From Psammoneis japonica (Eukaryota): a stretch of 64,000 nucleotides of DNA. A model generated the notes under the pieces. The model did not search any database. It saw nothing but the letters and a program-made list of their open reading frames with translations, and was not told the DNA's origin. The DNA lies in NCBI GenBank assembly GCA_008632985.1, contig QPGO01000302.1:1-64000 (forward strand). The letters run 5' to 3'. A program made the translations under genes and the position numbers. Positions 15,961 to 52,470 of the stretch are shown here, piece by piece; within the stretch, counting starts at the first letter, position 1, and each line of letters begins with the position of its first letter.

Positions 15961-16002
<42 letters not shown>

Positions 16003-29444: not shown

Positions 29445-30094
29445 TGACAGGATTTGAACAAGATTTTAGTTTGTCACACGTGATCATGTGTGCTCTTGGT
29501 TCCGCGCACATCGTGCGATGCAGCTTGCTTTCGAGCCACCGGCGCTCACAAGAGCAATGACAGCAGACGGGTTCCAGCCCCGGGTGGGGCTCCGTGTGAC
29601 ATTGGGCCCGCAGAATTCTGCGTGCGAGCTTCGTGGCAAATTTGTGCTGCAATGAAAATGCAAATGATCGCCAACAGAAAAAGAGGCAATTTTACGAATG
29701 CATCTCCTCCTCCATGCTTGAAGCACATCATTTTGACAGTTTGCCCGGGTGTGCTCTTCAGACATTGAAGAACACACCCAGTGCATTTTCATTCTCACAA
29801 GTGTTGAAAACAGAAAGCCTTTGGCTTTGCAAAACAGGGAGCATGAAACAATTTCGTAGAATGCAACATGTGGAAATCTGCGTGCGCGACATGCGATGCG
29901 ATCCAAAAAACTGTTGATGTCACAGTGCAGCAGTGCGAGGCCCCACCTGGAGCTGGAACGTGCCAGCAGTGCCGACATCACGACGCCAGCCTTTCGGCTC
30001 CTGCGGCGGTCTCTGCATGGAGACTCATCTGCAGTTTAGACAGCAGCAAGGAGTTGTTGTTTTCTTCCACCCCAGTCATCTTCATTTTCTGTCA
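29445..30094 (+). repeat. 5' LTR (247 bp plus a MITE insertion)
   Basis: Colinear with 35664-35910 once 29567-29969 is removed. Confidence 0.93.
29567..29963. mobile_element. MITE copy 1 (~397 bp) inserted in the 5' LTR
   Basis: TIRs ACGGGTTCCAGCCCCGGGTGGGG / CCCCACCTGGAGCTGGAACGTGC; CAGCAG duplicated on both sides and single in the 3' LTR (empty site). Confidence 0.92.
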
Positions 30095-32405: not shown

Positions 32406-32409
32406 GATC

Positions 32410-35400
32410 CGTTCGAGTGCAGCTGAGCCGCTGCCAAACTGTGAAGACCATGGCCAACACTGTCATGGATTGCTTTGGGTCCCCGGCTTGCACCTGGCTG
32501 CTCGCCCTGATGTGCGTGTGCTTTCTGCTCAACCACATGGCGTCTGCCAAGCTCCACTGGCGTGCCCCCCACCGAGGTGCCATCCGGCTCTGCTCCCAAC
32601 ATCAGCCCGCTCCTCCGCTTTCAATGGTGGGAGCCCGTGTGCTGCCACCTGGATGATTCTGACTGGCCGTCTGAGTCCCGTGAATCACGCGGTCACTTTG
32701 TTGGCATCACTGAACACGTTGGTCACCAAATGACATTCAAGATTCTTTCTGATGACACTCAGAAGATTCTCTGCCGTTCCAACGTGCACTCCGCCCGTGA
32801 TCCGTCTGCTCCAAACCTGCATCTTGATCCTCCTGACAAGAAATCTGCTGAACCTGTCATTAAATCCCGCCATGACTCCAAGGATTTGCCAGATTCACCA
32901 GATGGGGAGGCAATCAGGATGCCCAAAATGCCGGTCTTTGACCCCAAGGACATCATCGGATGCACCTTCCTCATGAAGCCACAAGAGGATGGACAACGCC
33001 ACAGAGCCCGCATCGTCAAAGCCGTTGAGGACCATGACTGGAAAATTGGAGACAATCCTGAACTGGTCAAGTTCATTTGCTCCGTCAACAATGACGAATG
33101 CGAGGAAGTCCCAGCCTGCAACGACATCATGCACCACATTGAGCAAGGACGAGGACACCACCCTCTGGAAGTTCCAAAGCATCGCATCGCATGAAGGACC
33201 ATTGCGACCCCATGATCCCTCTTGGAAAGGCTCAAGCTGCAACGTCATGCTTGAATGGGAGAATGGGGAGATCACGTCCGAACCCCTTGCCATCATTGCC
33301 AAGGATGACCCTGTCACCTGTGCCATCCATGCGCGTGAGGACGGCCTTCTAGAAACCGAAGGATGGAGACGTTTTTGCAAGACAGCCCTCCGTCAGAAGA
33401 AGCTGTTCCGCATGGCCAACCAAGCCAAGTCACGCTCCTTTTGCACTGCTCCACGACACAAGTGCGGGTGTGAAGTGCCGCAGGACTGCAAGCATGCCAT
33501 GGCCCTTGATGAGCGTAACGGCAACCGCAAGTGGGGGGACGCAACGGACCTTGAGATGACTCAGCTTGGTGAGTGCGAGGTCTTCCACGACTGCGGACAC
33601 TACAAGGATTCCAGTGCTCCATCAGGACACAAGAAGATCCAGGTGCATCAGACGCTGCGACATCAAACATGACAGATGGCACAAAGCAAGGCTTGTTGCC
33701 AATGGACACCTCACAGACGTGCCCATCGACAGTGTCCATTCCGGAGTGGCATCTCTCTGTGGCCTGCGAACGACGATCTTCCTGACCGAACTCAGTGAAC
33801 TGGTGACCCATGCAGAAACAGGGAACAAGTGCTTAAACCACAGAGACAGAGATTTTCTGTGTGTGTAAAAATTGTGAGATTGTTTTAGTTAGAGTGCAAA
33901 TGCGTGATGGTGTCTTTTTCCAAGAAACAAGAATTCTTGTTGTGTGACAAGTCATTGGAAAGACTCAATCACAAGTCTTTTGTAACACTCATTGACACTC
34001 ATGCGGAGCCAATTTGCAGGCTCATGCTTGGTGCTGCACACATCCTGCGCAGACCCTTCGTGCGAGGTGAGTCATTTGCGCGATGGCCAGTCGCGCCGGT
34101 CTCAGTCGCATGGGTCACTCCTGCAGCCTGTTGCAGGTCTCGCACTGGGAGTCGTGTTTTCTGCAACACGCTTCTGCGGGATCAGCGTCGCTGCAGACAG
34201 CCTGCAGATGCAGGAAAGTGGCATCATTGGCGGCCATGGCAGGGATGCCCACTGCATTGAGTTAGAGACCTGGGCCACTGACATTCGGAATGCCTGTCTC
34301 GAAGCTGCGACCAAGGAGAAACTGCACATTGCAGCAGGCCCCGAGTTCAGCAAGCTGGAGGGACACATCCTTGTCATCCACAAGGCCTTGTGCGGACTCC
34401 ACAGCTCTGGCCTCAGATGGCATGAATGCTTTGCCAATTGCTTGCATGCTGAAGGCTTCTTCCCATGCAAAGCCGAACCCGACATCTGGCTGCGCAGGAA
34501 TGGTGACCACTGCAAATGCGTGGCAGTGCATGTGGACGACCTGGCCTTTGCCATGAAGGACCCCCAGGCTTTTGCAGACACCCTCATGGAGAAATGCAAG
34601 TTCAAACTCAAGGGCACCAGACCGTTGGAGTTCCATCTTGGTTGCGACTTCACCCGTGACCCAGACGGCACCCTGTGCCTTGCTCCCCACAAGTGCATTG
34701 AGTGCATGGTTGACAACTGCGCACACCTCTTTGGGGAGAAGCCCCGCACTGATGTGCTTTCACCCCTTGACAAAGGTGACCACCCTGAGCTCGACACCTC
34801 CGAGTTACTCAAACCGGAGGGCATCCACCAATTCCAATCCTTGATTGGATCCCTGCAATGGGCCGCATCTCTGGGTTGCATTGACGCCACTGCAGCTGTC
34901 ATGTCCCTGTCTGGCTTCCATGCAGCGCCCCGCCAAGGCCACCTGGACCATGCCAAACGCATCTGCGGATTCCTCTCCAAGATGCATCATGGTGCCCTCC
35001 AAGTGTGCACCAAGGAGCCCGACCATTCGGACCTCCCTAAACCCGTGCATGACTGGGCTCAATCTGTGTGTGGGGAGGTAGAAGAGCTGCTCCCGCAAGA
35101 TGCACCCGAGCCACTTGGCAAGTTCGTCACCGCCACACACTGCGTTGATGCGAACTTGTTCCATTGCATGCTCACTGGATGCTCTGTCACCGGCATCCTC
35201 CATTTCCCAACAAGTTTCGGCTGATTGGTTCTCTAAGAAACAAGCAACAGTTGAGACTGCTGCACATGGATCCGAGTTTGTTGCTGCAAGGACATGCGTT
35301 GAGCAGATCATTGACCTGCGCATCACTTTGCAACACCTTGGCATCCCCATTTGTTAAAAATTGCCTCATGTTTGGGGACAACAAGTTGGTTGTGGACAGT

Positions 35401-35660
35401 GCTGCCATCCCTCACTCCAAGTTACACAAGTGACACACCGCCCTCTCATTCCACCGTGTGCGTGAGGCGATTGCCTCCGGTGGCCTCAAGTTTCATTTCA
35501 TCGAAGGCTCCCACAACCCAGCTGACATCCTCAGCAAGCATTGGGGTTGCTCCCAAGTCTGGAGCCTCCTTCATCCTCCAATGTTTTGGAACTTTGATCC
35601 TGAGGCTTTCAACCAATCTGACCTTGAATCTGTCGCTGTTGACCCCTCAAGCAAACTGGG
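32410..35660 (+). pseudogene. Copia integrase C-terminus, RT and RNase H pseudogene
   Basis: PNISPLLRFQWWEPV, EWENGEITSEPL, HKARLVANGH, TDIRNACLEA, KALCGLHSSG, VAVHVDDL, WFSKKQATVETAAHGSEF, NPADILSKHW; frameshifts and stops. Confidence 0.93.
33800..34257. mobile_element. ~450-bp non-coding insertion interrupting the Copia RT
   Basis: RT reading IFLTELSEL stops at ~33803 and resumes as ELETWATD at ~34259; weakly inverted ends; exact termini uncertain. Confidence 0.65.
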
Positions 35661-35663
35661 GAG

Positions 35664-35910
35664 TGACAGGATTTGAACAAGATTTTTGTTCATCACACAC
35701 AATCATGTGTGCTCTTAGTTCCGTGCACATCACGCGATGCAGTTTGCTTTCGAGCCACCAGCTCACAAGAATGATGACAGCAGTGCCGACATCATGACAC
35801 CAGTCTTTTGGCTCCTGTGGCGGTCTCTGCACGGAGACTCATCTGCTGTTTAGACAGCAGCAAGGAGTTGTTGTTTTTTCTTCCACCCCTGTCATCTTCA
35901 TTTTCTGTCA
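35664..35910 (+). repeat. 3' LTR
   Basis: TGACAG...CTGTCA, preceded by the PPT and followed by the TSD. Confidence 0.95.
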
Positions 35911-36310
35911 CAGGTCATCCTGCAGCCAACAATGAAGTGTGGCATTGAAAAGATTGCAGCAACATGTTGTGCCATGGCCCTGGCGCATCAAACAAAACAA
36001 AGCGAGGTTGTGCAATGCTCATCCTCAACATGGGGCAGAAATGACAGCATGGCCTTTCACTGTCCACCCTCACTGCGGCCCACAAATTGCATCAGACAAA
36101 ATTGACTCCCTTTAGATTCCCACAAGCAGTGCACCACCAATCCAAAGGAAGTGCACACAGGGAGTGTCAAACAATTTTTGAAGCAAGTTGGGAAGATTGG
36201 CAATCTTTTCTGGCCGCTTCTTGAGAAACAAACCCATTTGGCCAGGGTCAGGGCATGCTTGTCTGAGCAGGATTGACAACTGTTGCTCCTCTCTTCTCAA
36301 CTTGGATCTC

Positions 36311-36546
36311 GCACATCATTTTTTACTTGGCCAGGTGTGCTCTTCAGACATTGAAGAATGCACCCAGTGCACTTGTGTTCTTGCAATTTTGTCAAATGAA
36401 GTGTCTGGGGTTTCACAAAACAATGAGCATGGAATTTCTTTTGGAAGACCACACGTAGAAATGTGCACCCGAAACACATGACGGATGACAAAAAAATGAT
36501 TGTCATGTGTCAGCACTGTGAGCTCCCACCCAGGGCTGGAGCGTGT
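36311..36546. mobile_element. MITE copy 3, right half only
   Basis: CACATCATTTTTTACTTGGCCAG...CTTCAGACATTGAAGAA...GAGCTCCCACCCAGGGCTGGAGCGTGT aligns with copies 1 and 2. Confidence 0.85.
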
Positions 36547-37537
36547 TGCCAACCGCACATTGTCTCAGCCGTCTGGGTGTCTGAACATCTGGGCATGCCA
36601 TCACAGGCATGACACCAGGCACCTCCACCTGGCCAGACCAAAAGCTGTTCCTGACCCTGGAACACATGCCCCCATTGTTCACAGGGGCACCTGCAACGGC
36701 CTCTGCCCAGAACCTTGTCTGCTGCACAGACAGCAGCAAGGTGTTGTGCACTGGGTCCAGGCTGGAGCTCTGCTTGTGGTGTCCACCTGATGTCACCAAC
36801 ACTTGAGTGATGGAAACAGAGCAAGGATGACTGGCTCTTGTTCAAACTCTGTCAGGTTGACAGTCTTGATGACCCTCATCAATGCAACAAGCTCTCATTG
36901 AGCAACAAGAACATCCCAAGGACACAAGTGCACAAGTGGTGGCTGGGGTCAATTCTTTGGTCCATTTGACAGCAACCCCAGAAGCCACTCAAGAGAAATG
37001 GAAGAGCAACATTTGCAGTGTCAGGTTGGTGGGGAGTGAGGACAAAAATCAAAGAAGAGCTGGATTTTGGCAGCCAACCTTCAAAATGAACAAGGAAACA
37101 GTGAATGGCAATGGCGATAAATTGGCAGCACAAATGCCAACAGATCACTGCATTCCTCAGTCAGGGAATGGAAATCTGTCAGTGACAACAGCAAATTCTG
37201 GCACGAATTCCAAAGCGGGCTTGGGCTCAAGTCTTGCCAACCATGTGTCTCAGTCATCTGGGTGTCCAAACATCTGAGCATGCTGTCACAGGCATGAGAC
37301 CAGGCACCTCCACCTGGCCAGACCAAGAACTGCTCCTGACCCTGGAGTGCATGTCCCTGTCATTCATGGGGGCACCTGCAATGGTCTCTGCATGGAGACT
37401 TGTTTGCCACGCAGACAGCAGCAAGGTGCTGCACTGGGTCTGGGCCAGAGCTCTGCTTGCTGTGTCCACCTGATGTCATCAATGCTTGAATGATGGAGAC
37501 AGAGCAAGGATGACTGGCTCTTGCTCAAATTCTGTCA
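36547..37537 (+). mobile_element. Pair of ~305-bp LTR-like direct repeats (36547-36854, 37235-37537) with a 380-bp spacer
   Basis: Both start TGCCAACC and end CTGTCA; they share the (GGTCTCTGCATGGAGACT)...GACAGCAGCAAGG core with the Copia LTR; the first is followed by GGTTGACAGTCT, like GATTGACAGTCT after the Copia 5' LTR. Confidence 0.8.
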
Positions 37538-37799
37538 TGTCCTTCCCATGCACCCCCCCCCCCCCCCATGACTGTGGTGCAGCACACACAACGGCGTGCA
37601 ATTGTGAATGTGCAAACTTCTTTTTGTGTGACAATGCATGTTGTGCTTGCCTCCCCAGCTGCATGTTGAAGTCATTTGTCAAATGGCATGACATGACAGA
37701 TGTTCATGGCATCAACAACATTGCCATGTTTGATTTGCTCTGTGCAGCTGGTGGTGCGCACAGTTGTTGTTGTTTCATGTGGCCCAACACAGGGCTGCT

Positions 37800-40700
37800 C
37801 TAATTTTTTTTACAGTCTTTCTCAAGCAACTTTTTTTTCACTCTGCATGTGCACAGAGTGTGTGGAGTGTTCTCTTGAGCACTGTTCTCATTTGCAATCT
37901 CTTGTGTTTGTTTCTGGACAAACTTCCAGCCAGTGATGTTTCAAGTGTCAACCTTGTGTCTCTGATGAAGACAAGTTGTCCTGGCGCAGCTTGCACAGCA
38001 GTGCAATGTGCAGAATGCCCCACAAAAGCTGCTGCTGACAGCACTCCATCAAATGGACTCTCTGCATTCAGAGGTGCATTTTGTGAATCAAATGTGTGCA
38101 GCACATTGCAGGGCACTTGATGCATGTGCTCTGTCACAGTGTTTGCCTGTGGATTTTGTGTGGCTGTGGGCTTGAATTTAGTGCCGCAGTTATCTTGAAC
38201 CACAACCTGGAGTTGCTGTCTGCAGAAGTGTGTGTGAGATCGCTGAGGCCACATGTCTTGATGGCAGTTGATCACACTGATGAAACATCAAAGTTCTTTT
38301 TGAGTTGCAGGAGCTGCAGCTGCTTGGGTTGCCTCTACTTTCTTGGGCATTGGTCTGGCACCATTGTGTGAGATGCAAAAGCCCAGAGAGTCTGCTTTGG
38401 GCTTGGCAAAGAAGGACATTTTGGTGTTGACCTTTTGGCTGGCTTGATCCAGTCGCACAAGAGCTGCTTCAAACTTCTTTAGATGACATGAGAAGTCACC
38501 CTCAGCAAGGCACAGTGTGTCATCAAGAACACAGGCTCAGGCTCTGACAAACTCCAGACCTGCCATGAGCTCAGCACTCATGTGTTCTTGAAAATTGCCT
38601 GGAGCTCCACAAATTCCAATGGGGAGTTTGCAGCATTCACACTTCTTGCCCCATGGCATCATGATCTTGCACAAGCACCAAGCATGTGGCATCAGCTTGA
38701 TGTGACAGTGTCCCATGCTTAAATCTCAAATTGAGCAATGCTGCACACATCAAAAACTTCCAGCTTCTGTGGCACATCCTAAATCTTGGGCAAGGGATTC
38801 AGAGCACACATTGCCTGCTTGCTCAGCTCACAAAAGTTGGGCAGGAACCAAGCTTGACCGTTTGTCTCATGTTGAATGAGAAAGGCTGGAGCTGCCTGCT
38901 CAGAATGACTCATTTTTCTTGGGACTCCCATCTCACAGTGTCATTTGACTTCCTTTGAAGTGGCCCACGCCAAGGCTTGTGGAGCAGGAAATGGCTTCAC
39001 ATCATGTGAGATTGTTCCCAACTTCAATGTGAGGCCTGCTGATTTCCCAGTTCATTTGCCCAGAGAGCCATCAAAAAGATTCTCAAAACTTTTTAAGAGG
39101 AAGTTCAGTTGCTTCTGCTCCTCTGGGGCCAGATGCATTGCTGCAGCAGCTGCCTCATTGAGGTCAGCAACATGACAGTCAGAGCCCACGATCCTGTCAA
39201 TCCTGTCATTGAGGCCATTCATGGTGCAAGACTCTTCAATGTGATTGGCAATCAGCTTGAACACTTTGGGATCAAGAAGTGCATCAATGTTTTTCTCTGG
39301 GGCAGCCACATTTTCCCACTTGACATCTTTGCTCACAAAGTCCAGTGTGGCTCCAAGACTGCTCATCAGATTGCATCCCATGATCACATCATGTTGACTT
39401 GCAGAAGCAGCAGTGTCCTTGTCAACATGTGCTGTCTTCTCAACAAGCCCATGCTGTCAGCCACAAAGAGCCCACCTCTTTGGCACCCCAAAGCTCAGCT
39501 GCAGATTCCTTGGTTCTCTCCATTTCCATGTGAATTTGTGCAAAATCATGGTTGACAATGTTCTGCTGTCAAGGTGGATGTGCAGGAGGCTTGTTTTTGG
39601 CTTTCCCCAAGGAGGCATTCTCACAAGCAATGACTGCTGGACTTGCATGTGTTGCTTTTGCCTTTTTCTCAGGCTTTCTGACATCCAGCAATGTGCCTGA
39701 CTCCTTGACAGGTGCCAGTCATTCCTCAGAATTGTCATGAGTCATTTTTTCAATTTGACAGTTGTCCTGACCAAGGGTGTCAGAGTCTGAATCTTTGGCT
39801 TGATGTTTCTTGTCCTTTGCCAGGGAGCTCATCTTGAGGGTTTTCTGAATTGCTTGAGCAACCACAGTTCTCATCTCTTCTTTTTGAGAGACATTTTTTG
39901 CATCACCATGAGACTGCATGCAATTGCCATTTGAATGTTGCCTTTTTGGCTCTCATTCAAAGTTCTCACAGTGTTCCTTTGCCAGTCTTTTAACAACCCA
40001 GCACTTGCACACACATCATGAGTGGTCTTTTTGCAACAGCTGGACCACCAATTGGACTCAGAACATTTGGCGCCAGATTGGCAGCCATTTTTGGGATCAT
40101 GATGGGATTGGTCTTTGGCTTTGAACCCAGGCTTGTTGCCAGCATCACCCTTGACATGAATCTGGTCAAATGTGTCCTCTCTGCAACCTCCAGACACTCC
40201 AAAAACTCTGCCAGCTTGTAAAAGGTGTGATTGAGAATTTCGAGACCTTGAAGAGTGGGCTGACAGCAAAGCTCAGATTCTGGTTTGACTTGAAGGGAGG
40301 ATGGCACTTGAAGTCTTCACTCACTTCTTGGGCCCAAGCTTCAATTTGGCAGATCTTCACAGAGTCTGGCTTCTTCAGATTGCTTTGCAGACAGCACCCC
40401 TGACTTTGGAATGCATTCTTTGGGAGCGTGCAATCACAGAGGTGATGTGGGCAGTTTTTGAAGGCTCCATCATCATCTTTGGAGTCAACATTCCCCACCT
40501 CATTCTCAAAAACTTTGAGAGCATCTCCCTGCAACAATGCACGCACCTTGCAAAACTTGTCAGCCTGCTCTTGGATGTTTTGTCCAAGAGCTGGGACCTT
40601 CTTGCAGTTCTTGAGGAATTCAATGTGCTTGGGAGCTCCCTGCTTGTTGCAGCACTTGGCATCAACAGCCATGTGCAGGTCTTCTTGTCTCCGGGATGAA

Positions 40701-41300
40701 AGCACTGCTCCATTTTGAGGCACTGACTTGGTTTTTGAGTGTTTTTGGCTCAGAAATCAATTCCAGCAGCACAGGTGCAATTTTTCCCTGCTTGGTGGAA
40801 GACTTGATGCTGGCTGCATGAGATGAAAGCTTCTTTTTTTTTGTTTTTGCCTTCTGTGGTGTGTGTGCACAGGGCGCTGTGCTCAAAGAATGAGTGCAAA
40901 ACAAATGAAGGTGTTTTTGGCTCAGGAATCAATTCCAGCAGCACAGGTGCAATTTTTTCCTGCTTGGTGAAAGACTTGATGCTGGCTGCATGAGATGAAA
41001 GCTTCATTTTTGTGTTTTTGCCTTCTGTGGTGTGTGCGCACACTGCGCTGTGCTCAAAGAATGAGTGCAAAACAAATGAAGGCAGAGTGAATTGCAAAAA
41101 GTGGAAAATCACAAGATTGAATTTTGTTCTGTGATTTTGGGTTTCTCCGAAAGAGCCCCAATGTCCTGGAATGTTCTTTGCACTGCTTCTTCAGACAAAA
41201 AGCCTTGCAGAGAATCTGGTTGTGACAACAATCTGGTTGTGACAATGTTTGGATTGTCTCGGTGCATGACTGATGTTGACAACTTGTGTGCATCAACATT
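37800..41300 (-). mobile_element. Ty3/Gypsy retrotransposon remnant (gag-protease-RT-integrase, deleted and degenerate)
   Basis: Integrase KPTATQNPQAN..EHMHQV...QAAPGQLVF (37.9-38.2 kb); RT LSMGHCHIKL...PWGK.CECCKLPIG (38.55-38.75 kb); protease MIMGCNLMSSLG (39.4 kb); gag-like LLQGDAL (40.5 kb); Gypsy domain order. Confidence 0.85.
40739..41082. repeat. Tandem duplication, two ~172-bp units
   Basis: GTGTTTTTGGCTCAG...GCAAAACAAATGAAG starts at 40739 and again at 40911. Confidence 0.92.
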
Positions 41301-41499
41301 GCCTGTTGATTTAATTTGCATTTTGAGCATTCAATCAGAGGATCTCAGCAGCCAGTCTGACCTTCTTGCAAGAACTTCTTGCACATCCGCAATTGTGGTG
41401 CAATTGACATGTGTGGCAATGCACAGTTTTGAGTGTGCTTGTTTCTTTCTGTGGAGCAATGCATGTTGCAAGCAAAAGCCCTGATCTGCAATCTTCCCA

Positions 41500-44400
41500 A
41501 ACTCTCTGACTGCAAAACACTGGCAGCAGGGCCATGCAGAGGGCCTCTGCCAGGGGCCACCTTTTTCCATCTCATGCAATGCACAAAAATTGTGCACCAC
41601 CAGCCAAAGCCTTCCATGACAATGTCAAGCAATTTTTTGTGCCAACACACTTTCCTGCAGCACGGCACCTGTTGGCACTGACCACAATGACTTTGGCCCA
41701 TCAGGCAACATCATTTCTGGTGCCTGCCATTGAGTGTGTGCTGTTGCTGGTGTTGCACCACAGCAACTCATGTCATTTTTCAGCACACCTGCAGTGGCTG
41801 TCACAGGTGCTGTCCCCAGCAACAATGCCATTGATGCTGATGCTGCTGTTGTTGCAAAAACCATTGCTCTCAGCTGCACCACAGGCATGGCAGGTGATGC
41901 CATTGCTGTGGCAATCAAGTCCAAAATGCACCCAAGCCAAAGTGCTGAAAATTTTGCACTTTTCTTTCTCGTGCTCTGTTGCCTGTTGCCCCCCACAGGT
42001 GCTGTGACAAGTGCCAATGCTGTCAATGAAGTTGACAATGCTGCAACACCATTGCTGTCAATCACAACAGCCCTGACATGGCAGGTGGTGCCATTCACAT
42101 GGCTGTTGATTGGGTTGCTGTCTCTGGTGCAAGCCTGCACTTGCTCTCACTGTGTGATGATGTGGTTGGATTTGTCACTTCAAAAGGACAACAACAAAAA
42201 CAAGAGCAGCAGTGCTGCAGCTTGTGCATTTCTGCTCAAATGAGCCCCTGCACTTTTGCTGCATGCAGCAAGAACCCATTGTGAGCATTGGGCCTTGCAA
42301 AAACTCTTGACTTGGCACACAAGCATGGGCCAAAGACAGAAGGTGGTGGCCTTTCAAAAGGCATTGCCAAAATGACAGGACAGTCTTCAAGGTTGTTCTT
42401 TGACCAGCACCATTGCCAGAAGAGAGTGTGGTTGATGTTTCTTTTGAAGAAAAACATCTGCGTGTGCATTGACGCTGTGAAGTCCTGTTGCCAAATGTGT
42501 GTTGCTGGCTGCCACCTGGTTGCCAATCCTTGTGCACAAACATGGCTTCCATCTTTCCAAAGTTGGGGCATGTGGCCAGCTCAAAAACACTCATGACATG
42601 GCATGTGGTTTCTTTTGCTTTCAGGGATGCAGCTCAATCATGAGCTGCCCCACCTTCCACATCTGCCTTGACATGGCCCATGCCACAGCCCCCATGACAG
42701 ACATGACAAAAGGCTTTTTCATCAATCTTGCTGTCTTGGGCCACCCATTGCTTGTGGACTTTGCCAATGCCACACGTGCACTTTTTTCCATGATGTCAAG
42801 TGACGCAACAACATGGCATCTTTTTAAAATCCCAAAAGCAAAGAATGGTGGGTAGAAACATCTGCCAAATGACTTTCATCTGCAAAAATCAAAAAACAGG
42901 TGTGAGTTGCCACTGACAAACACAGCAGCAGCATGGTCCAATGGGGTGAATGCATCAGGAGAATGGGCAGCGGTGTTGTTGGCTGCCAGTGGAAGGCATG
43001 GGGCCACAGATGGCAGTGGCATCAGCACTTGTGGGAGGAACTGCAGTGTGAGAAAAAAAGTGTGAGTTGGCATCATTTGACGGTCATTTTGCCATTGGAA
43101 AAAGGACAAAAATGTGTTGAATAACACCAGCTGCACCAAGGGCAGGAGAATCAGTGTCATGTGCACTGGTGGCAAGACACCCAGGGATGGCATTGCTGCA
43201 AGTGGCACTGCCTGAGGAAGGCAGTGGGGCATGAAGACAACAAAACCAAAACCCAATTTCTGTGTTCAAAGGTGCTGCTGTGCTTCTACCCTGCAGCTGA
43301 ACCTTGGTTTCATGAGCAGATGTTGCATTCTGATGAAGCTCATTGCAGCATGCAAGAAGTTTATGAGTCACAGAACAGCATTGGTTGGTGTCATCTGTTC
43401 AATGGCAGATTCCATTTTGTGGAGTGAAGCTCAATTGTGACACTTGGCAGACAGCGGGCATTGCAGCCATGAGGAAAAATGCAAACATTTGGGTTGGTGG
43501 TTGGCAATGACTTTGGCATGTGTTTTGTCTTGATGGTGGGAACTGTGAGATTCCCACAACAATGCAGCTCATGGTCATGACTCCCAAACTTGCAAGTCAT
43601 CTCAACACTGTGACACAGAAGCAGAAGTCAAGGCCATCTGCTCCAGAGTTGATGACCACCTGGAGCAAGGCAAAAGGCAGATTTGTTTGGCCTTGTTGAT
43701 GGACACTTGATGCACTTGACTCACCACGTGCACAATCAGCCAGCAAGCTGTGGTTTGTCCCACATTTAAGCCAAGCATCTGTGAGGTAAAAGGTTCATCT
43801 GCAAGAGGTGCTTGCACCATTGCACAAGTTGTTTTGGTGCCACACCACCACCTTCTGGTGGTGCTGATCCAGGCCAGTTGCCATGCACTCATCCTGTCGC
43901 ACTTTGTGCATGCTGGGAGTGTGGGTTGGCTTGTTGCCAGAGCTGCAGGTTGGAACAAGTGCAGCAGCACCTTTGAGTGCAGAGCTGGGGTTGTGTTTTT
44001 GTGAGTTGCTGGTGCAGTGCAGCAATTGATGTGGATCACATCAACTCTTGCATCTTTGGCGCATGCTTGGAGATGAGCCTCTCATCATCTCCTGTTGCAG
44101 TCAGTTGGGTTGCTGGAGCATTTGAGGATTCAGAAGTTGGGCCTGCAACCAATCTTGTTCTGGTCATGATCCTGGTGCCAGCAGCACTCTCTTGCACTTG
44201 CACCCGGTGCAGGTTTGGGCAAAAAGTGTGAACAGTGTGCTTGGGTGTTCCACAACCATTGCATGCACACTTTTTCTTTTCTTGCAATTTTGGCACTTTG
44301 CAGTTGCCCACAAGTTTAAACACCATGGTGCAGAAGGTGGCACATGCTCTCAACCCCCATCTTGCTCTGTCTGATGTTTGAAGCAACCAAGATCAAGCAG

Positions 44401-45250
44401 CCATGTTGGACTGGTTGCCTTGTGCTGGCCTGGCTGGGTTGGATGCTTGAAAGATCAAGTCTGGAAAGGCCAGATGCACCAGCATTTGGCCCTCCTTTCT
44501 GTCAGACTTTTTTCCTGCTCAGTGACCCAGTGCAGGATTGTTCCTCTCCCCATTGTCTGAGGCCCCTGTCAGATTGTCATCCAAGGTTGGTGAGCCACTT
44601 TGTCAAAGTCAGGAATTTGCTTTCCTTGTTGCATCATCAGCAGCTGACAGGGAGGGTGGTGAATGACTGGCGCACTTCTATCAACAAGTGTGGTTGCTCC
44701 AACAGTTGTCATTGGGGCCATTTGAATGTGCCAAGTTTCCCATTGGCTCAAGTTCATGCCTGCACTGATGGCCAAGAAAGCACTGTGTTCTCCAACAAGG
44801 ACAAGCAGGTGGCAGCACCCCCCGCTGGGATCACCGCCAGCTTGTTGTGTGCTTCATTGTTTTCCACAATCAATGCTTGTGGTTTCTTGCTCTCTTGTTC
44901 ATGGCAGTGGCAGCCACCACAAAGATTTTTGCACACACACCCAGAAAAAGCTCTCATTTTGCCAACTTGTTGTCACCACCCATGCACCACAGGTTGACCT
45001 TGGTGGCTGGACTTGCACACTCTTCTTTTCTGTGCTTGCAGATGAGCCTGCTTCTTTGCAGGTGCTTCAGGCACTCCTTGATGGGCCAACAAGTGGCCTT
45101 GCCAAGCCAAGCAACCAAGCTTGCACAGCTTTTGTTGGTTGGGGAAACTGTCTGGCACGCACATGTGAGGAGCACATGTGCAACGTCACCTGGTGGCACA
45201 GGAGAAGGGACAGATGCAGAGCAGGGATGGAGCTGAGTCATGTGGGCAGG
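41500..45250. mobile_element. Highly degenerate TpA- and CpG-depleted repeat sequence, class not recognised
   Basis: TG/CA-saturated composition, continuous with the flanking TE remnants. Confidence 0.5.
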
Positions 45251-45700
45251 GTGTGGGGTGGGATTGGGGTTGGGGTCAGCAAGCTGGGGCTGCAGTTTGG
45301 TGGAGCGACAGGTGAGTTGGTCAGCAAGCAATTTGGTTGTTGTTGCAAAGCTGGGGCTTTTTGGAGGCCCCGTGGTGATGGAGTTGAGGTGTGGTGGGTC
45401 AAGCCGAATCATGATGAAGCAGCAGATGTGGACCGTTGTGCACAGGTGCATGCAACATGGGTGGCGGGGTGTTGGAAGGAGGATTCGGCATTCCAGGGAG
45501 GTGGTGGTGGGGCAGGGACGGGGCATTGTTGATCAGCTCCGAAAAGGAGGTGGTGTGCGAAGCAGCCGGGGGCTCCGAAGTGATCGATGGCAAAAGGGAT
45601 GAGGCAGATGCCAGCGTTGTTGAGGGTGGATGTGAGGGTGGTGTTGTGTTGGGTTTCGTGTGTTCCGTTGAACTTCCGTTTGGTGCTCGCATGGTGTGCC
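45250..45700 (-). mobile_element. Possible C-terminal restriction-like endonuclease region of an RLE (CRE-like) non-LTR retrotransposon
   Basis: KRKFNG...LIPFAIDHFGAPGCFAHHLLFG resembles the K..K(Y)...FxPxxxExxGxxG tail of RLE domains; motif resemblance only. Confidence 0.45.
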
Positions 45701-45934
45701 TCGGTGTACCGTGCCGTAAGGGCTGAGAGTGGGGGCTTTGTTTTTTCCGCCTGCCCTGTTTGCGCGCGAAAATGTTCGCAGCCGCACGACGAGCGACGCG
45801 CTCGAGCACCGTGAACAACACGGGGCATCCAACAACCGAAGCACAAGCTGGAAGCACAAGAAGACCTTACTGTATTTGAGCCGCCGGTCTTCCTTTGGCT
45901 GTGAGAGAGACCCTAGAGAGAGAGAAAGAAGAAC

Positions 45935-48319
45935 ATGTCGTTAGCAACAACATCCGGTGGCGGTTTCTCGGGTGGAGGTGCCGGCGGTGCTGGCCTTGCA
46001 ATGGCTCATCATGCCGGTGCTGTTGGTCGAGCTGCACCACCACCTCAGCATCAAGCCAACAGCGCGTTTGGGAGCGGAGCATCCACCGGTGCTCCTCCTT
46101 CTGTGGCGGCTCTTGGAGCGGACTTGCTAGATAAGGACCAGTCCCTTTCGTTAAAGCAAGTGAGGAACACATCTCATCTTCCAATTGTATCTGTCGATCT
46201 CTATGGAACTGAAGCGAAAATCGCCTCGTTTCCGCCCAAGTCTGAGTCCTTGGGAGCTATTCAATTTCCCGCGTCGTCGGGATCGTTGTCGTCGACTCTG
46301 ACCTTGAATGCTACCGAGGCTTCCCATAAGGCATTGCGCAAGTGGTTATCTAAAAGCAAGGGGTATGAATCTGTTCAAACTGCTGTTCTAGTCAAGGGAG
46401 ACAACTGTGTTGAAGTTGTTCGTCCTCATCAGCTCTTGGGGGTTCGCCGGCTCAAGGACCTACCTCAGGACGTTCGCGAGTCCTATTCAATAGACGAAGA
46501 TGACTCCCCAGCTATTGCAGAGGAAGCCAACGCAGGATCCATTGGAGTTTCAATCGCGAACGGGACCATGGACGGAGGAACACCCAACGGGGACGACTAT
46601 GACCGGGTTGTGTTCAAGATTCGTCTCCATGAGAGCAAAAAGGCAGTCACGATGCTTCCCGAGGAAGCAGTTGCTCTTGCATTAAACCAAGCAAAGTTCA
46701 AGGTTGCACGGAATACAAAGTCAAAGGATGACGAGGAGGAAATTTTGGAATACCCCATGGCATTGGCTCTTCCGAGTTGGGCTTGTGGCGATGCCGGTGT
46801 CGACGCGATCATGGATGCGGTCGACGGAACAGCAGTGATATTCCAACGTAACGTAGCGGCTCTTTCGGGTGCGCTCTTTCCTGGTTCTCAGCCGGGGTCG
46901 AAAAACGTAATCTTGGAACGATTGCAGAGCACCATTCAACAGCGAGCACAGGAGTTTCAACGGGACAAGAGCCGCGACGAGGACGCGGAGTTTAGCGACG
47001 ATTCCGTATTGATTGTGGTTGGGGTCTCGGCTGGTGGTGTGGAATGCACAGCCATTTCGGTTTCAAACTATCAATTGCTCTCGGGCCAGGCCGCGTCGTG
47101 TAACAGTTGTCCGTTTGGAAGCTTCAAGGTTTTGACCAATGTTGCGTACGCAACCAAAGACCCAATTGCCAAGCTCGGCAAGTGCATCAGAAAGCTTCAG
47201 TCCACCCTGGAAGACGTTGCACCAGAAGAAGACCTCCCGGTGGCGTTTGTTACGCACGGAACTGTTGCAGAGCAATTGGCTATCAACAAGGCATTAAAGG
47301 CGACAAAGCTAGAGTCGTGGGGCAACGTCCCAATGTTTTCCACCAAGGCAGATTGTGTGGCAGTTGGAACTGCAATCCTCGGAGCCGTCGGTCACGGACG
47401 TTTACTAACTCCGGTGGAAGGTGCCACCAGTAAGAAGCACATGACGCAGCGTGCTTTGCGCCTTTTGAATGTGGCTCCTACGTCCGTTGGCATTCGCATG
47501 AACTACCACGGTGACGATCCTAGCAAGTGGGCTCCCGTCAAGGTCATTTTTGACTTTGACCGTCGAGTCCCCGCCGGGCCTCATGTGTTGGACCTGGATG
47601 CCGCCGAGTGTGCCGCGCATCGCAACGCAAACGAGTTGGAGCTTACGCACGACGAAGCCTTTGAGGCAGCCAAAAAGTATCAGGGTTCCAAAGGTATTCC
47701 GAAGCGAGAAGAGGCCGCTCTTGGATTTCGAATGCAGATTGTGCAAAAGCTGACACGAAAAGGGGGGTGGATCCCTGTCGGTAACCCAATGAGTCCTCTC
47801 TCCAAGCGCGACGATGATGACGACGAGATTCGTCACGCCTTTGAGAGCTCAAAGCTTGAACTTAGCTTTGTTGCGACGGGTATTATCACTGCTTCACTAA
47901 CGAGCGACGGAAAGTCAGTGGTGCAAGCTACGAAATCCGCACGAAACTCCAAGCTACGATATTACGCAGGAGTGATTCTTGCTATAGCGTTCTTTGGTGG
48001 GTTCTTAATCAAGTCTTACTGGGAGGAGCATGTTTTTGAACGCGATACGGAGCGTCTCTTGGCGTATTACAAGCACGTTATACCTGGCTCCTTCCATGAT
48101 GGCGATCGACAAAACGCCCGGTACCTTGTTTGGAAGTACGGAGGCAAAAAGGCAAAGCTATGGAAGCGCCTTGAAACCAAGTATGGAGTGCCAGTTCGGC
48201 ATGCTGACGAGTGGGACGATGATGAAACGGAGACAGAGGAGGAAGCTACAGAAAACTTGGACGAGGAAGAAAGCACCCAAAAGGCCGAAGACGGTGAAAA
48301 CGAAGAGCCAGATCTTTAG
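45935..48319 (+). CDS. Divergent Hsp70-fold protein with a C-terminal transmembrane helix and acidic tail
   Basis: VSVDLYGT, LPEEAVALAL, ALALPSW, DCVAVGTAILGA and LLNVAPTSVGI parallel Hsp70 motifs in order; TM YYAGVILAIAFFGGFLI; ends EEPDL. Confidence 0.7.
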   Translation: MSLATTSGGGFSGGGAGGAGLAMAHHAGAVGRAAPPPQHQANSAFGSGASTGAPPSVAALGADLLDKDQSLSLKQVRNTSHLPIVSVDLYGTEAKIASFPPKSESLGAIQFPASSGSLSSTLTLNATEASHKALRKWLSKSKGYESVQTAVLVKGDNCVEVVRPHQLLGVRRLKDLPQDVRESYSIDEDDSPAIAEEANAGSIGVSIANGTMDGGTPNGDDYDRVVFKIRLHESKKAVTMLPEEAVALALNQAKFKVARNTKSKDDEEEILEYPMALALPSWACGDAGVDAIMDAVDGTAVIFQRNVAALSGALFPGSQPGSKNVILERLQSTIQQRAQEFQRDKSRDEDAEFSDDSVLIVVGVSAGGVECTAISVSNYQLLSGQAASCNSCPFGSFKVLTNVAYATKDPIAKLGKCIRKLQSTLEDVAPEEDLPVAFVTHGTVAEQLAINKALKATKLESWGNVPMFSTKADCVAVGTAILGAVGHGRLLTPVEGATSKKHMTQRALRLLNVAPTSVGIRMNYHGDDPSKWAPVKVIFDFDRRVPAGPHVLDLDAAECAAHRNANELELTHDEAFEAAKKYQGSKGIPKREEAALGFRMQIVQKLTRKGGWIPVGNPMSPLSKRDDDDDEIRHAFESSKLELSFVATGIITASLTSDGKSVVQATKSARNSKLRYYAGVILAIAFFGGFLIKSYWEEHVFERDTERLLAYYKHVIPGSFHDGDRQNARYLVWKYGGKKAKLWKRLETKYGVPVRHADEWDDDETETEEEATENLDEEESTQKAEDGENEEPDL

Positions 48320-50049: not shown

Positions 50050-52470
50050 TGTACGGCGCGAAAATGCACGCAGACGCGCAAGATTGCCAACGTCTTATGT
50101 GTGATGGGCTACTGTGCTTCAAAGGAACGTTGGGATCGTGCGTGGCGTGCGCATCGCACTGTGGTTGCGGTTGAGAATCCCCATGGGATTCCCGGCCACC
50201 GCCTCAGCGGATCAGCACCTCGATGACGTGCAACAGTGATCCACAGCACTGGATCTAAGGTGTGTGATAAACAGCAGTAGTTGCACCGTAGAAGCAGCAG
50301 CTGACAGGAACCCGGACATGCGAGTCTGAAGGTCTGTGCAGCAATGCAGCCTGGACAAAATGGAGGACATCCGGCACTGTGCCGAGAACAAACGTCACTT
50401 CACCCATTCCACCAGGCGGAGGAGCAACATACCCCGCAACCAACCCCCAGTGCTGGGCATGCTCAGCAGCAACCTCGAGACGCTCCTCTTCCTTCCGAGT
50501 GGGGGGGGCGGGGTGCCGCGGCGATCCCTTGACACAACGCCACAAGTTGGTCGTTCGTCATGCCGCCATTGTTGCCAACACCGCCAACTGCCAACAGACG
50601 ATCCGAGATGTCGAAACCATCAAAATCCGCAGCGTCATCCATCTTGCTCGCATCAAACAAAGGGCTGCCCTTCGTGACCGAGCGCTCGTCGTTGTTTGCT
50701 GCAATGCATTGCATGCCACGCTTCCATGCAGCTCCCAGTGGGAAATCCGCACCCAACTCCGGAGTGGGCTCATCCACAGGAATGCCACTGGGGAAAGTCT
50801 TGCCTGGTGGCAAAGGCAGGAACAGCTTCAGAACAGAGATCTGAGGGTGGTCTTCCGCAGCCGCAGGTGGAGGGAAATGCAGACGCCCCACAGGTGCAAC
50901 CCAGTCATCCTCCGGTGGAGTTGTTGGGCCGTCAACAGTGTCCGGCGCCTGATTGCGAAGTCATTGAAGCTTGAAAGGAGTTGAGAGCGACAGAGACTGG
51001 GGTGTGACTCCCAATCTCGTCCGACAAGCTCCCAATGACAGAGGTGGTCCCTTCCGTCGAAGCAAACACTTGAGGGCGGGTGAGAATCATGATCCACTTT
51101 GAGCAAACAAAGGCAAACTGGGTTGCTTTCATTGGATTGGATGTGACAGTGTGGCGAACCTCATGGTTCACACCCGGTCGAAGCGTCGAAGCCAGTGCCA
51201 TTGCATTCTCGTCTGAGAACGGAAACGCTGTTGTGTGGTGCTGGTCAGCAGCACCACGACCCTGCTGGACAGCAGCGGCGGAAGGAGCAAACACAGTCAT
51301 TGAACAATGACTTCACAGACTCAGTGTAAATGGCTGACTTCGGAAATTGTGAGGAGCCACTCCCATGGGTTCCGGCCGTGAACTCTGCAGGTGGAGCATC
51401 CTGTCCACAACTTTGTGGTGTTTGATTCAGATTTTCAAAATTTTCAATGGCTGCAAACAATGTGAACCGTGAACCCTGCATGACGGTTGCTCTCAAGCAG
51501 GCACCACTGGGGCTTGGAGGACCCATCATGCTCCGTGCCTGCATCGAAACATTCGTGGCTCGGACAGACATGTTGTGTGGTCGAGCGCTGAGCATGCAGG
51601 ACCAGCAGTTGAACAACCAGCAAGAAACAGAGATGCCATTCTCAAGAGGCACACACACATGAACATGTTCACAATCCCACACTCGACGCGTTCCAGATGC
51701 AGGTGGGAATCCGTGTGACATTGGGCCCGCAGACTTCTGCGTGCGAGCTCCGCAGTAAAATCACACGGTGATTAAAATGTCAATGATCGCCAACAGAAAA
51801 TGAGGCAATTTTGCGAATGCACAAACTCGCACATGATTGAAGTACATCATTTTTTACTTGGCCAGTTACATTCTTCAGACATTGAAGAATGTAACTGGCG
51901 CATCATTGTTTCTATAAATTTGTCACACAAAACGTCTGGGGAACAGCGAGTCTGGACAATTTTTTTAAAATGTCACACGTAGAAATCTACGTGCAAAACA
52001 TACGACGGATGATAAAAATCATTGTTGTCACACGTCAGCACTGCGAGCTCCCACCTGGGGCTGGAACGCGTCACTCGCACCAGCGAGGGGGTCAACCATG
52101 GCCGACAGCATGCGGCCATTTCCCGCCGGCGAGGGTGTGACCCACACACGCCGAGCGGTTGTCAAGAAAGTGGCTTTTGGTTGCATAGAGGAGACCATCC
52201 TCTCAGTGTCAGGCATTGCCGCATTGGCACAGTAAAAAAGAGGGGGATGGAGACAACGACTGTTCATGAGTCGGTTCCGGAATCCCAGTCAAATTGCTCT
52301 GTCATGAGCGCAGAATTTGATGGAGTGAACATGTGGGACACCTGTGTCACTCCCCGATCCTTAGCAATCATCAACAGAGTGTTAATTTTGCAATGAGACA
52401 TGGTCGCTGCAGTGGACCATGGTTGCACCCCTCTGATGCTGACTGCCAAGGGAACAATGCGTGGATTGGT
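50050..52470. mobile_element. TpA-depleted, CpG-retaining repeat island with a decayed - strand ORF; class unknown
   Basis: Very few TA outside the nested MITE; stacked pseudo-ORFs; lies between normal genes. Confidence 0.55.
51686..52071. mobile_element. MITE copy 2 (386 bp), the least mutated copy
   Basis: Perfect terminal ACGCGTTCCAG / CTGGAACGCGT; CACTCG duplicated at 51680-51685 and 52072-52077. Confidence 0.95.

Follow-up and report, generated by a model that had tools for sequence, protein, structure and literature searches.

The closest described counterpart of the DNA considered here comes from the chlorarachniophyte Bigelowiella natans, in whose integrated NCLDV and virophage DNA a hypermutation of TpA has been reported (Mettrop et al., bioRxiv 10.64898/2026.01.13.699255, 2026 preprint). 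According to that preprint, of the 231 de novo mutations recorded in two integrated viral regions, 230 were A-to-G or T-to-C changes, all of these on TpA, and the TpA mutation rate was about 1000 times background. The genome contains 124 TpA-depleted clusters, and its TpA-depleted coding sequences are enriched in reverse-transcriptase and DDE domains (Mettrop et al., 2026). Full-text literature searches for TpA-directed A:T-to-G:C hypermutation of selfish DNA gave no report besides this one. Two other processes share features with what we find. RIP, known from Neurospora and other ascomycetes, ruins transposons by DNA-level, dinucleotide-specific transitions while leaving genes intact, and sets up sharp compositional domains. 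Methylation-driven CpG decay gives the same TG and CA products in the same domain-wise pattern.

The DNA analyzed here, called the window, is a stretch of 64,000 nt from the diatom Psammoneis japonica (contig QPGO01000302.1 of assembly GCA_008632985.1, positions 1 to 64,000). Five TA-free islands, 21.5 kb in total, have a TA rho of 0.05, with TG at 1.69 and CA at 1.81 (2419 TG and 2270 CA dinucleotides), whereas in the gene-bearing remainder of 42.5 kb the values are 0.59, 1.15, and 1.16. Roughly 70 TAs remain in the islands, with a bias towards TTAA and TTAG. The main island ends no more than about 100 nt from the start of the next transcribed gene, and from about 35911 to 45000 it is CpG-free as well (CG rho 0.09-0.17). 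Pfam scans were run on two sets of ORFs, 20 long ones (13 from gene-bearing DNA, 7 that lie in the islands or overlap them) and 89 in and around the islands; in the islands they recognized only a Ty1/Copia reverse transcriptase. By these scans the targets in the islands are transposons and unclassified repeats, rather than DNA of NCLDV or virophage origin. The scan of the 89 ORFs also gave one sub-threshold chance match. The reading that we consider likely is that of a diatom nuclear genome in which a DNA-level process converts TpA to TpG or CpA on repeat domains, and in which one of three copies of a MITE, copy 2, is young and unconverted. The features on which the argument draws are collected in Table 1.

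Table 1. Positions (in the window) and properties of the islands, the MITE copies and the Copia element.
Feature	Position	Strand	Details
Main TA-free repeat island with copies 1 and 3	29006..45940		17 kb
Small TA-free island, left flank of copy 2	50431..51685		1 TA in 1255 nt; CG rho 0.67
Direct-repeat pair	36543..37540	+	36543-36857 and 37231-37540
MITE copy 1	29567..29963	+	complete, 397 nt, 2 TA, 18 CG, degraded termini
Copy 1 TIR			20 nt at 90%
Copy 1 TSD, CAGCAG	29561-29566 and 29964-29969		insertion inside 5' LTR of Copia element
Empty site, paralogue of copy 1 insertion	35778..35783		one CAGCAG in 3' LTR of the same Copia
MITE copy 2	51686..52071	+	complete, 386 nt, 13 TA, 22 CG
Copy 2 structure			23-nt TIR, 87% identity, first 11 nt perfect; subterminal 11-nt inverted pair
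Copy 2 central palindrome	51861-51877 / 51883-51899		arms match 17/17
Copy 2 TSD, CACTCG	51680..51685		right TSD at 52072-52077
MITE copy 3	36311..36546	+	5'-truncated, 236 nt, 2 TA, 4 CG
Dead Ty1/Copia retrotransposon	29445..35910	+	complete; TA rho 0.08, CG rho 0.55
Copia LTRs	29445-30094 and 35664-35910		247 nt, TG..CA; the first interrupted by copy 1
Copia 5-bp duplication, CAGGT	29440-29444 and 35911-35915
Copia reverse-transcriptase frame	33986..35221	+	Pfam RVT_2, 47.6 bits (cut-off 31.6); no tyrosine left

The MITE copies are true TIR transposons with 6-bp TSDs, and for copy 1 a precise empty site exists. Because of these features, change in this family is change at the level of DNA. 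Copies 1 and 2 (386-397 nt) are non-coding: the ORFs overlapping them belong to no Pfam family. The two have a 24-nt subterminal block in common. In their shortness (about 390 nt), lack of coding capacity, TIRs, TSD, precise empty site and what appears to be a high copy number they are like other MITEs, and the 6-bp TSD and the ACGCGTTCCAG terminus matched no described family. Profile and low-stringency searches detected no further copy in the 64-kb window, which also contains no autonomous partner. Copy 3 lies in the part of the main island from which CpG is gone. An 18-nt core common to the three copies recurred at 106 loci in metagenome contigs, which were dismissed as chance matches; the longest BLAST match was 30 nt, and none extended past the seed. 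A look-up of the copy 2 sequence in a sequence index gave no similar stretch.

The fate of TA was followed among three copies, all within the window. At the 13 TAs of copy 2 the alignment gives, in copy 1, CA at 5, TG at 4, TA at 1 and something else at 3; copy 3, which can be aligned at 11 of these sites, has CA at 5, TG at 4 and TA at 2. TG or CA thus stands at 9/13 and 9/11 of the sites, respectively. From copy 2 to copy 1, TA was kept once in 13 cases, as against 200/347 dinucleotides that are neither TA nor CG (Fisher p = 3.4e-4), and from copy 2 to copy 3 twice in 11, as against 130/211 (p = 0.008), the other dinucleotides being kept at 58-62% in these comparisons. Transitions tell the same: between copies 2 and 1 they affect 10 of 26 A or T positions within TA and 29 of 188 other A/T positions (odds ratio 3.4, p = 0.011), and between copies 2 and 3 the figures are 9/22 and 18/122 (odds ratio 4.0, p = 0.007). 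Most of what a preliminary description of this DNA had reported is borne out here, namely the positions of the three copies, about a dozen TAs in copy 2, TG or CA at the aligned sites in the other two, a TIR element with no RNA intermediate, and the paired strings that it quoted, every one of which is present in the alignment. Its statement that the flanks of copy 2 are nearly TA-free holds on the left; on the right it is true of the first 115 nt (52072-52186, no TA), beyond which 5 TAs occur in the next 290 nt and a normal density is reached at about 52500.

Both old copies are converted at seven sites, with different products at two and the same product at five, and at three sites TA is common to two of the three copies. 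Two of the same-product sites sit in the two palindrome arms with compensatory changes, and probably represent a subfamily difference. Because five of the seven doubly converted sites carry the same product, part of the TA loss in copies 1 and 3 could have been inherited from a source copy that was already converted. The copy 2 lineage is, to judge from its sequence, not pristine, since its TG/CA rho is 1.4-1.5 and it has itself one of the two products at several TG-versus-CA sites (alignment columns 207-208, 224-225, 245-246, 357-358, and 382-383).

The direction of the change can be read from the dead Copia element. Its reverse transcriptase has 60-63% identity to diatom Copia-type proteins and, when set against 16 diatom-type homologues, retains none of 14 conserved tyrosines (Cys 8, His 2, Phe 2, Gly 1, Gln 1), whereas 178 of 254 conserved columns are kept overall, the 14 Tyr columns included. 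From residue 101 onward, 37 conserved residues have been replaced (hand tally); a single step reverses 12 of them by TG/CA-to-TA and 13 by TG/CA-to-CG, none by any other transition, and 12 are not reversible by one transition. TG and CA are about equally frequent in the element (625 and 619). TA is thus the ancestral and TG/CA the derived state, because conserved Copia tyrosine codons were lost to Cys/His codons, copies 1 and 3 differ in product at two sites, and TA is shared at three.

The two LTRs of one element are identical at integration. Those of the Copia element now differ at 23 of 245 sites: 9 of CpG type, 3 TG-versus-CA sites, 1 TG/TA and 7 others. In the direct-repeat pair, 48 substitutions separate the two members, and 22 nt of them make up 11 TG-versus-CA sites, because of which the repeats appear to have resolved to TG or CA independently after duplication. 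The LTR pair and the other repeat pairs document independent resolution in place better than the three MITE copies do. Short-read contigs of the same sample, 0.5-2.9 kb long, match the islands and depart from them at 0-4 letters apiece, so the TA-free state is not an assembly artefact. Where assembly and read contigs differ at 36-45 kb, 12 of the 19 sites are of CpG type (hand count); these differences may record ongoing mutation, but they could also be alleles or base-calling errors. One of three coded runs, X2, all from one sample, resembles spliced RNA; its contigs cover neither the islands nor copy 2, and this was not taken as evidence on expression.

The decay of CpG is a second layer in the window, found at 35911-45000, in copy 3 and in the Arg codons of the Copia element. 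Of the CpGs of copy 2, 12/22 are kept in copy 1, whose domain has a CG rho of 0.55, and 3/13 in copy 3, whose domain has one of 0.09. Each old copy mirrors its host domain, as mutation in place predicts, because both share the saturation of the island and only copy 3, along with its sub-domain, shows the CpG decay. TpA loss and CpG decay are separable processes, since copy 1 and the Copia element are TA-free yet keep about half of their CpG. The loss of CpG was discarded as a measure of the age order of copies 1 and 3; it tracks the host domain, and private transversions are more numerous in copy 1 than in copy 3.

By every available proxy, copy 2 is the youngest of the three. It has the fewest private transversions (6, against 20 in copy 1 and 10 in copy 3) and is the best preserved, with 11/11 matches in the terminal repeat, an intact palindrome and a perfect TSD. 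In the source reads its bin has a summed contig depth of 47802 as compared to about 62 for single-copy DNA, or about 770 times, a single summed figure per 667-nt bin that counts anything at least 95% alike and that part of the element could drive; the bin of copy 3 has 453. Among these abundant look-alikes, the read contigs contain no variant at a share of at least 10% inside 51686-52071. The TAs of copy 2 are therefore features of the family rather than private gains. Copy 2 is probably a recent insertion.

Being TA-poor is not by itself a sign of age. The TA-poor stretch at 35000-36333 also has a depth of 19000-21000, with three variant rows, two of them in high-depth contigs. Either some TA-poor repeats multiplied after conversion, or TA-poverty can be a property of a lineage, and the equation of TA-poor with old is weakened therefore. 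Divergence is likewise a poor clock here. The copies diverge by 28%, and over 239 aligned columns free of gaps a hand count gives 37 private non-hotspot differences for copy 1. Most of the divergence between copies, and most of that of copy 1, is older than the insertion, because the LTR that hosts copy 1 and its partner LTR differ at only 7/245 non-hotspot sites. The use of three-taxon branch lengths as ages was abandoned, as the LTR clock allows copy 1 a residence time far shorter than its branch length implies. The youth of copy 2, as first described, stands. What does not is the time series of progressive TA loss that was read into the three copies: they occupy only two states, copy 2 being essentially untouched and copies 1 and 3 equally saturated, and they are not one burst seen at three ages. 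The accompanying view that each TA resolves independently agrees with the two sites of different product and draws no support from the five of seven where the product is the same.

Could copy 2 have kept its TAs for a reason other than youth? It might be no younger than the others and escape by its location or nature, being short, lying next to genes with 115 nt between it and the margin of a small island, and staying outside chromatin that attracts the mutator. Copy 2 does lie at the right margin of its island, copies 1 and 3 do take their state from host domains and not from branch lengths, and in B. natans hypermutation is regional and not always active (Mettrop et al., 2026). But both immediate flanks of copy 2 are TA-free, so its locus was exposed at some time, and an escape by location leaves aside its superior termini and palindrome, its few private transversions, and the great abundance of its look-alikes. 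We regard this explanation as rather unlikely. The polarity could also be turned around, a possibility that the preliminary description had itself raised: the family consensus would be TA-poor, and copy 2 would owe its TAs to C-to-T or G-to-A changes at CpA/TpG. A majority rule gives just this result, as at 5 of the 11 shared sites the old copies agree on TG or CA, and the private transitions of copy 2 are under that rule mostly C>T (8) and G>A (5). Such a gain is nevertheless very improbable, given the two sites where the old copies differ in product, the three where two copies share TA, the lack of variants at 10% or more among the copy 2 look-alikes, and the Copia residues, which set the direction across the window as TA loss.

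An entirely different route would be ADAR-like A-to-I editing of double-stranded transcripts, fixed through reverse transcription. Editing of double-stranded RNA hits both strands, Copia elements do go through RNA, and ADARs prefer a U before the edited A, according to the discussion in the preprint (Mettrop et al., 2026). The MITE, however, has no reverse-transcribed stage, the LTRs split at TG-versus-CA sites only after they had been made identical at integration, and the unclassified spacers and direct repeats are just as TA-free; there is thus little room for RNA editing, and we give it hardly any credence. Hardest of all to credit is an origin without any history of mutation, the TA-poor state being either compositional or a sequencing artefact of modified DNA. 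TA is already scarce in the background, and the island sites where assembly and read contigs disagree cluster at CpG, as might result from base-calling of modified bases. Against this, independent read contigs give the same TA-free sequence, conserved tyrosine codons have become Cys/His codons, and a site that is TA in one paralogous copy is TG or CA elsewhere.

We therefore return to the reading in which DNA-level conversion of repeat domains is combined with a young copy 2. All three sequences are copies of a non-autonomous cut-and-paste (TIR) transposon of about 390 nt. A mutation process would turn TpA into TpG or CpA (A:T to G:C, on either strand), targeting whole repeat domains and sparing the intervening genes. 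Copies 1 and 3, residing in the 17-kb repeat island, would have taken on its saturated state, whereas copy 2, from a TA-containing and currently abundant subfamily, would have landed in a small island already converted and would be unconverted still because the conversion of that island came before its landing. The window establishes that the conversion is specific, that it has a direction, that it acts on both strands and in place and is restricted to domains, and that copy 2 is relatively young. The chemistry may be an enzymatic deamination of adenine in 5'-TA-3', by analogy with what the authors of the B. natans preprint propose for their case. Targeting would be by silent chromatin rather than by copy number, and the conversion rate may be tens to hundreds of times background, a rough lower bound taken from the LTR clock. 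We can go further only tentatively, to a possibility that we think less likely than not: that diatoms and chlorarachniophytes share, by SAR descent or by convergence, a defence that deaminates 5'-TA-3' on DNA in silent selfish domains at tens to a thousand-fold of background. It would be independent of cytosine methylation, spare TTAA/TTAG, and be slow or episodic enough to be outrun by a MITE burst of hundreds of copies.

The same signature, at saturation in a diatom's transposon islands, would imply that the process extends beyond a single species and beyond viral inserts. The two kinds of element contribute different evidence: a cut-and-paste element with a precise empty site speaks for change on DNA, and an LTR pair identical at integration for change in place. 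One abundant MITE family with both old and young members makes, in addition, a practical assay for rate, sequence context, and domain dependence, and its young copies in islands are a natural place for spotting new mutations.

How does the diatom locus compare with the known systems? With B. natans it shares the confinement of A:T-to-G:C changes to TpA, the outcome of TpG or CpA by strand, the restriction to non-host domains, and the lasting signature of TpA depletion with gain of CpA+TpG in clusters. The hosts and targets differ: a chlorarachniophyte (Rhizaria) with viral and virophage DNA in one case, a diatom (stramenopile) with Copia, a MITE, and unclassified repeats in the other. TpA depletion is near-complete here (rho 0.02-0.11), in contrast to 0.45 in the NCLDV region of B. 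natans. The mutations in B. natans were seen live, whereas here the signature is read from sequence alone, and in part of the island a distinct CpG decay is superimposed. Methylation-driven decay of that kind acts on CpG and not on TpA, and its domain here is smaller than the TA-free domain. RIP is opposite in chemistry and direction: it makes TpA from CpA, whereas here TpA is destroyed, with CA and TG in excess. RIP is also triggered by duplication, and in fungi; the host here is not a fungus, and a very abundant, near-identical MITE subfamily is unconverted. The depth of the copy 2 look-alikes, coarse as that figure is, together with their lack of variants at 10% or more, makes it less plausible that copy number alone triggers the process in a 386-nt repeat.

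The three elements compared here (copies 1 to 3) belong to one family of short inverted-repeat elements, which their terminal repeats, target duplications and an empty site define as a non-autonomous cut-and-paste transposon (MITE). Copies 2, 1 and 3 align over 386, 397 and 236 nt, respectively, with 71–72% identity, and a profile built from them found no fourth copy in the 64-kb window. The empty site of copy 1 is a single, uninterrupted CAGCAG in the 3′ LTR of the same Copia, a dead Ty1/Copia element. The target duplication, empty site and inverted repeats are those of cut-and-paste movement, and the preliminary description was right to claim an element without an RNA intermediate. Copy 2 also has a subterminal inverted pair of 11 nt and a central palindrome with arms matching at 17/17; the match is 13/14 in copy 1, and no central palindrome of 10 nt or more was detected in copy 3. 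Relative to copy 2, the palindrome in copies 1 and 3 has matching changes in both arms, one transversion pair among them, which argues that the hairpin was maintained during subfamily divergence.

Positions, structure and TA content of the features discussed
Feature	Position	Structure	TA content
Copia, complete	29445–35910	LTRs 247 nt, TG..CA; 5-bp duplication CAGGT at both sides	
MITE copy 1	29567–29963	termini degraded; palindrome (29747–29779) 14 nt at 93%; target duplication CAGCAG; within Copia 5′ LTR	at copy 2's TA sites: CA 5, TG 4, TA 1, other 3 (13 sites aligned)
MITE copy 2	51686–52071	23-nt terminal inverted repeat, first 11 nt perfect; 6-bp duplication CACTCG, perfect; palindrome at 51861–51899	
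MITE copy 3	36311–36546	5′ part missing; palindrome region at 36335–36373	at copy 2's TA sites: CA 5, TG 4, TA 2, other 0 (11 sites aligned)
Direct repeats	36543–36857, 37231–37540		
Five islands, 21.5 kb	6281–7726, 15214–16440, 29006–45940, 50431–51756, 63438–64000	almost without TA	count 68 (71 in the context tally); rho: TA 0.05, TG 1.69, CA 1.81
Rest of window, 42.5 kb			count 1698 (1702 in the context tally); rho: TA 0.59, TG 1.15, CA 1.16
Segments skipped by X2 contigs	49151–49234, 53442–53540, 54561–54642	84, 99, 82 nt; ends CT..AC	
Gene near main island	45917–48319		
Block skipped by X1 contig	50219–52400	2182 nt; contains small TA-free island and copy 2	

Copy 2 had been described as keeping about a dozen TAs where copies 1 and 3 (the old copies) have TG or CA. 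It has 13, the old copies 2 each, and TG or CA stands at 9/13 and 9/11 of the aligned sites; every string pair quoted earlier is present in the alignment. TA is retained from copy 2 to copy 1 at 1/13 sites, vs. 200/347 for dinucleotides that are neither TA nor CG (p = 3.4e-4), and to copy 3 at 2/11 vs. 130/211 (p = 0.008). Transitions are commoner at the two bases of TA than at other A/T, 3.4-fold in copy 1 (p = 0.011) and 4.0-fold in copy 3 (p = 0.007), again as proposed. Two of the "converted" sites belong to the palindrome difference, and the reverse case occurs at one site (TA in copy 1, TG in copy 2). The old copies have different products (CA vs. TG) at two sites and TA is common to two copies at three, so that 5 of the 11 shared sites give direct evidence of TA as the ancestral state. 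At the seven sites converted in both, the product is the same at five. Chance would allow this (binomial p ~0.45, by hand), and so, just as well, would descent from a source copy that had been converted earlier. At five TG-versus-CA sites copy 2 itself has one of the products, and its TG/CA is raised; its lineage probably passed through conversion before.

For the polarity of change, Copia provides a stronger test than the MITE sites. Its reverse transcriptase is 60–63% identical to diatom Copia-type proteins, and there is no tyrosine among the 412 residues of the frame, the median being 4.8% among the 120 homologues listed. The 14 conserved tyrosine columns have Cys (8), His (2), Phe (2), Gly (1) and Gln (1); with these counted in, 178/254 conserved columns are kept. 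Replacements of conserved residues number 37 from residue 101 onwards (hand tally): a single TG/CA-to-TA change reverts 12 and a single TG/CA-to-CG change 13, any other single transition reverts none, and one transition is insufficient for 12. Tyrosine loss and this tally show that TA was destroyed; scarcity of TA was not an original property of the sequence. Among the homologues listed, one from a public metagenome contig (P0048) is also tyrosine-poor (0.9%), with Tyr 4, Cys 6, His 5 and Phe 3 at 18 conserved tyrosine columns; it keeps conserved Arg at 21/24 and conserved columns overall at 309/360. It looks like a copy converted at TpA only, in other DNA.

The change involves both strands, TG and CA being equally enriched (625 vs. 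619 in Copia; 2419 vs. 2270 in the islands). The two Copia LTRs, identical at integration, have since diverged at 23/245 aligned sites: nine CpG-type, six nt making up three TG-versus-CA sites, one TG vs. TA, and seven other. The direct repeats differ by 48 substitutions, 22 nt of which form 11 TG-versus-CA sites. When an ancestral TA (or CG) common to two resident copies is resolved independently in each, sites of this kind result. None is found in the near-identical tandem pair at 40.7–41.1 kb, so some duplications are later than conversion. The proposal that each TA resolves independently is borne out by the LTR pair and the direct repeats. An RNA-editing route is ruled out for these sequences by the TG-versus-CA sites between resident copies and by the cut-and-paste nature of the MITE. 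With TA loss of ~86% or more in Copia and non-hotspot change of ~1.4% per LTR, the rate of change at TA sites would have been tens to hundreds of times that at other sites, provided that Copia integrated with a normal TA content; saturation of the sites makes this a lower bound.

The observation is confirmed and its interpretation supported in part, but the copies do not form a graded time series of TpA loss: saturation is the same in copies 1 and 3, and copy 2 has hardly been affected. Both old copies are TA-poor, and CpG of copy 2 is kept at 12/22 in copy 1 and 3/13 in copy 3; the dinucleotide state of each is that of its host domain, which fits mutation in place. Nor do the three copies represent different ages of one burst. 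Since Copia had integrated before copy 1 inserted into its LTR, the residence time of copy 1 is bounded by LTR divergence (7/245 non-hotspot). The private non-hotspot differences of copy 1, 37 in 239 gap-free aligned columns with 20 transversions among them (hand count), exceed this bound, so most of the 28% divergence arose before the insertions and is that between subfamilies. Old and young are cleanly contrasted by the copies, and the DNA-level argument from them is sound, but they do not amount to a calibrated time series; change in place is better recorded in the window by the two Copia LTRs, by the tyrosine codons of Copia and by the direct repeats at 36.5/37.2 kb.

That copy 2 is the youngest is upheld by four lines that agree. 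It has 6 private transversions (copies 1 and 3 have 20 and 10); it alone of the three has perfect termini, duplication and palindrome; and it is TA-rich between flanks nearly without TA, as had been noted (left, 1 TA in 1255 nt; right, 0 over 115 nt). The fourth line is depth in DNA-run contigs of the same sample, which is one summed figure per 667-nt bin and counts sequence at least 95% alike: ~62 for single-copy sequence, 47802 for the bin with copy 2 and 453 for that with most of copy 3. Nowhere in copy 2 do these contigs show a different letter at a share of 10% or above. Look-alikes of copy 2 at 95% or more are thus very abundant, and all of them contain TA in the same way; the TAs of copy 2 are family features, not private gains, and a TA-poor consensus from which copy 2 gained TAs is contradicted. 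Against these lines, sparing of copy 2 by position, not age, seems an improbable account.

One TA-poor region bears on the equation of TA-poor with old and unique. The stretch 35000–36333 (Copia end, 3′ LTR and beyond) is TA-poor with a summed depth of 19000–21000 in DNA run X1, and such a repeat, abundant at 95% or more, is a poor fit to that equation. Only three variant rows fall there, two in high-depth contigs, and a tiny run (X3) has 31–45-nt contigs at 35640–35685. One X1 contig passes directly from 50218 to 52401, two other letters intervening and the shorter side being 30 nt; a contig at 50314–50345 has a depth of 30, half the single-copy value. The ends of the skipped block show neither a terminal repeat nor a duplication, and an allele without it possibly exists.

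The window is nuclear DNA of a diatom; the named best matches of its mitochondrial protease ATP23 gene are Cyclotella, Discostella, Cylindrotheca and a Bacillariaceae bin (identity ≤74%). An assembly artefact as the source of TA-free sequence is rejected, since short-read contigs of the same sample reproduce it. CpG is also lost in ~35911–45000 of the main island (CG rho 0.09–0.17) and is about half kept in Copia (0.55; 0.55–1.08 for Copia and the DNA to its left, 29006–35910). Conserved Arg columns of Copia keep Arg at 6/17 (His 5, Cys 3, Gln 1). As CpG loss affects only part of a TA-free island, there are two separable decay processes, with different domains and the same products.

Residual island TAs are biased in context: TTAA 12 vs. 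61 in the background (4.7-fold), TTAG 14 vs. 81 (4.1-fold), a preceding T in 36/71 vs. 351/1702, and ATAT 0 vs. 126, with GTAC and ATAC/GTAT rare; where the old MITE copies retain TA, it is in TTAC and GTAG. The bias may be due to a sequence preference of the mutator that extends beyond TA, or to the route by which new TAs arise. Assembly and short-read contigs differ at ~19 sites in 9 kb of island (36004–45340) vs. 3 in ~7 kb of genes, mostly CpG vs. TG/CA (12 sites), with TA vs. TG/CA at two (38370, 43122) and TG-versus-CA at one (38877–38878). Either allelic variation or miscalls at modified bases could account for these. Contigs of run X2, labelled as guessed DNA, skip three segments that are GT..AG introns of minus-strand genes, and the run thus behaves like RNA. 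One X2 contig, from 45855, places the start of a gene within ~100 nt of the island's right edge.

RIP is similar in outline, but its chemical direction is opposite to that of the diatom process and it is rejected; the TA-containing look-alikes of copy 2, abundant by a coarse depth figure, would also speak against triggering simply by copy number, as in RIP. Full-text literature searches for another TpA-directed signature gave one relevant paper, a preprint on Bigelowiella natans (Mettrop et al., bioRxiv 10.64898/2026.01.13.699255). It reports that 231 of 302 nuclear mutations in mutation-accumulation lines fell in two integrated viral regions, and 230 of these 231 were A-to-G or T-to-C, every one at TpA, at ~6e-7 per site per generation, ~1000 times background; as the agent, its authors suggest an adenine deaminase resembling ADAT2 that would act on DNA. 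At the level of sequence, the diatom signature shares with B. natans the restriction to TpA, both products and the confinement to domains. It differs in the host lineage, a diatom, in its targets, which are transposons and not viruses, and in that the signature is saturated.
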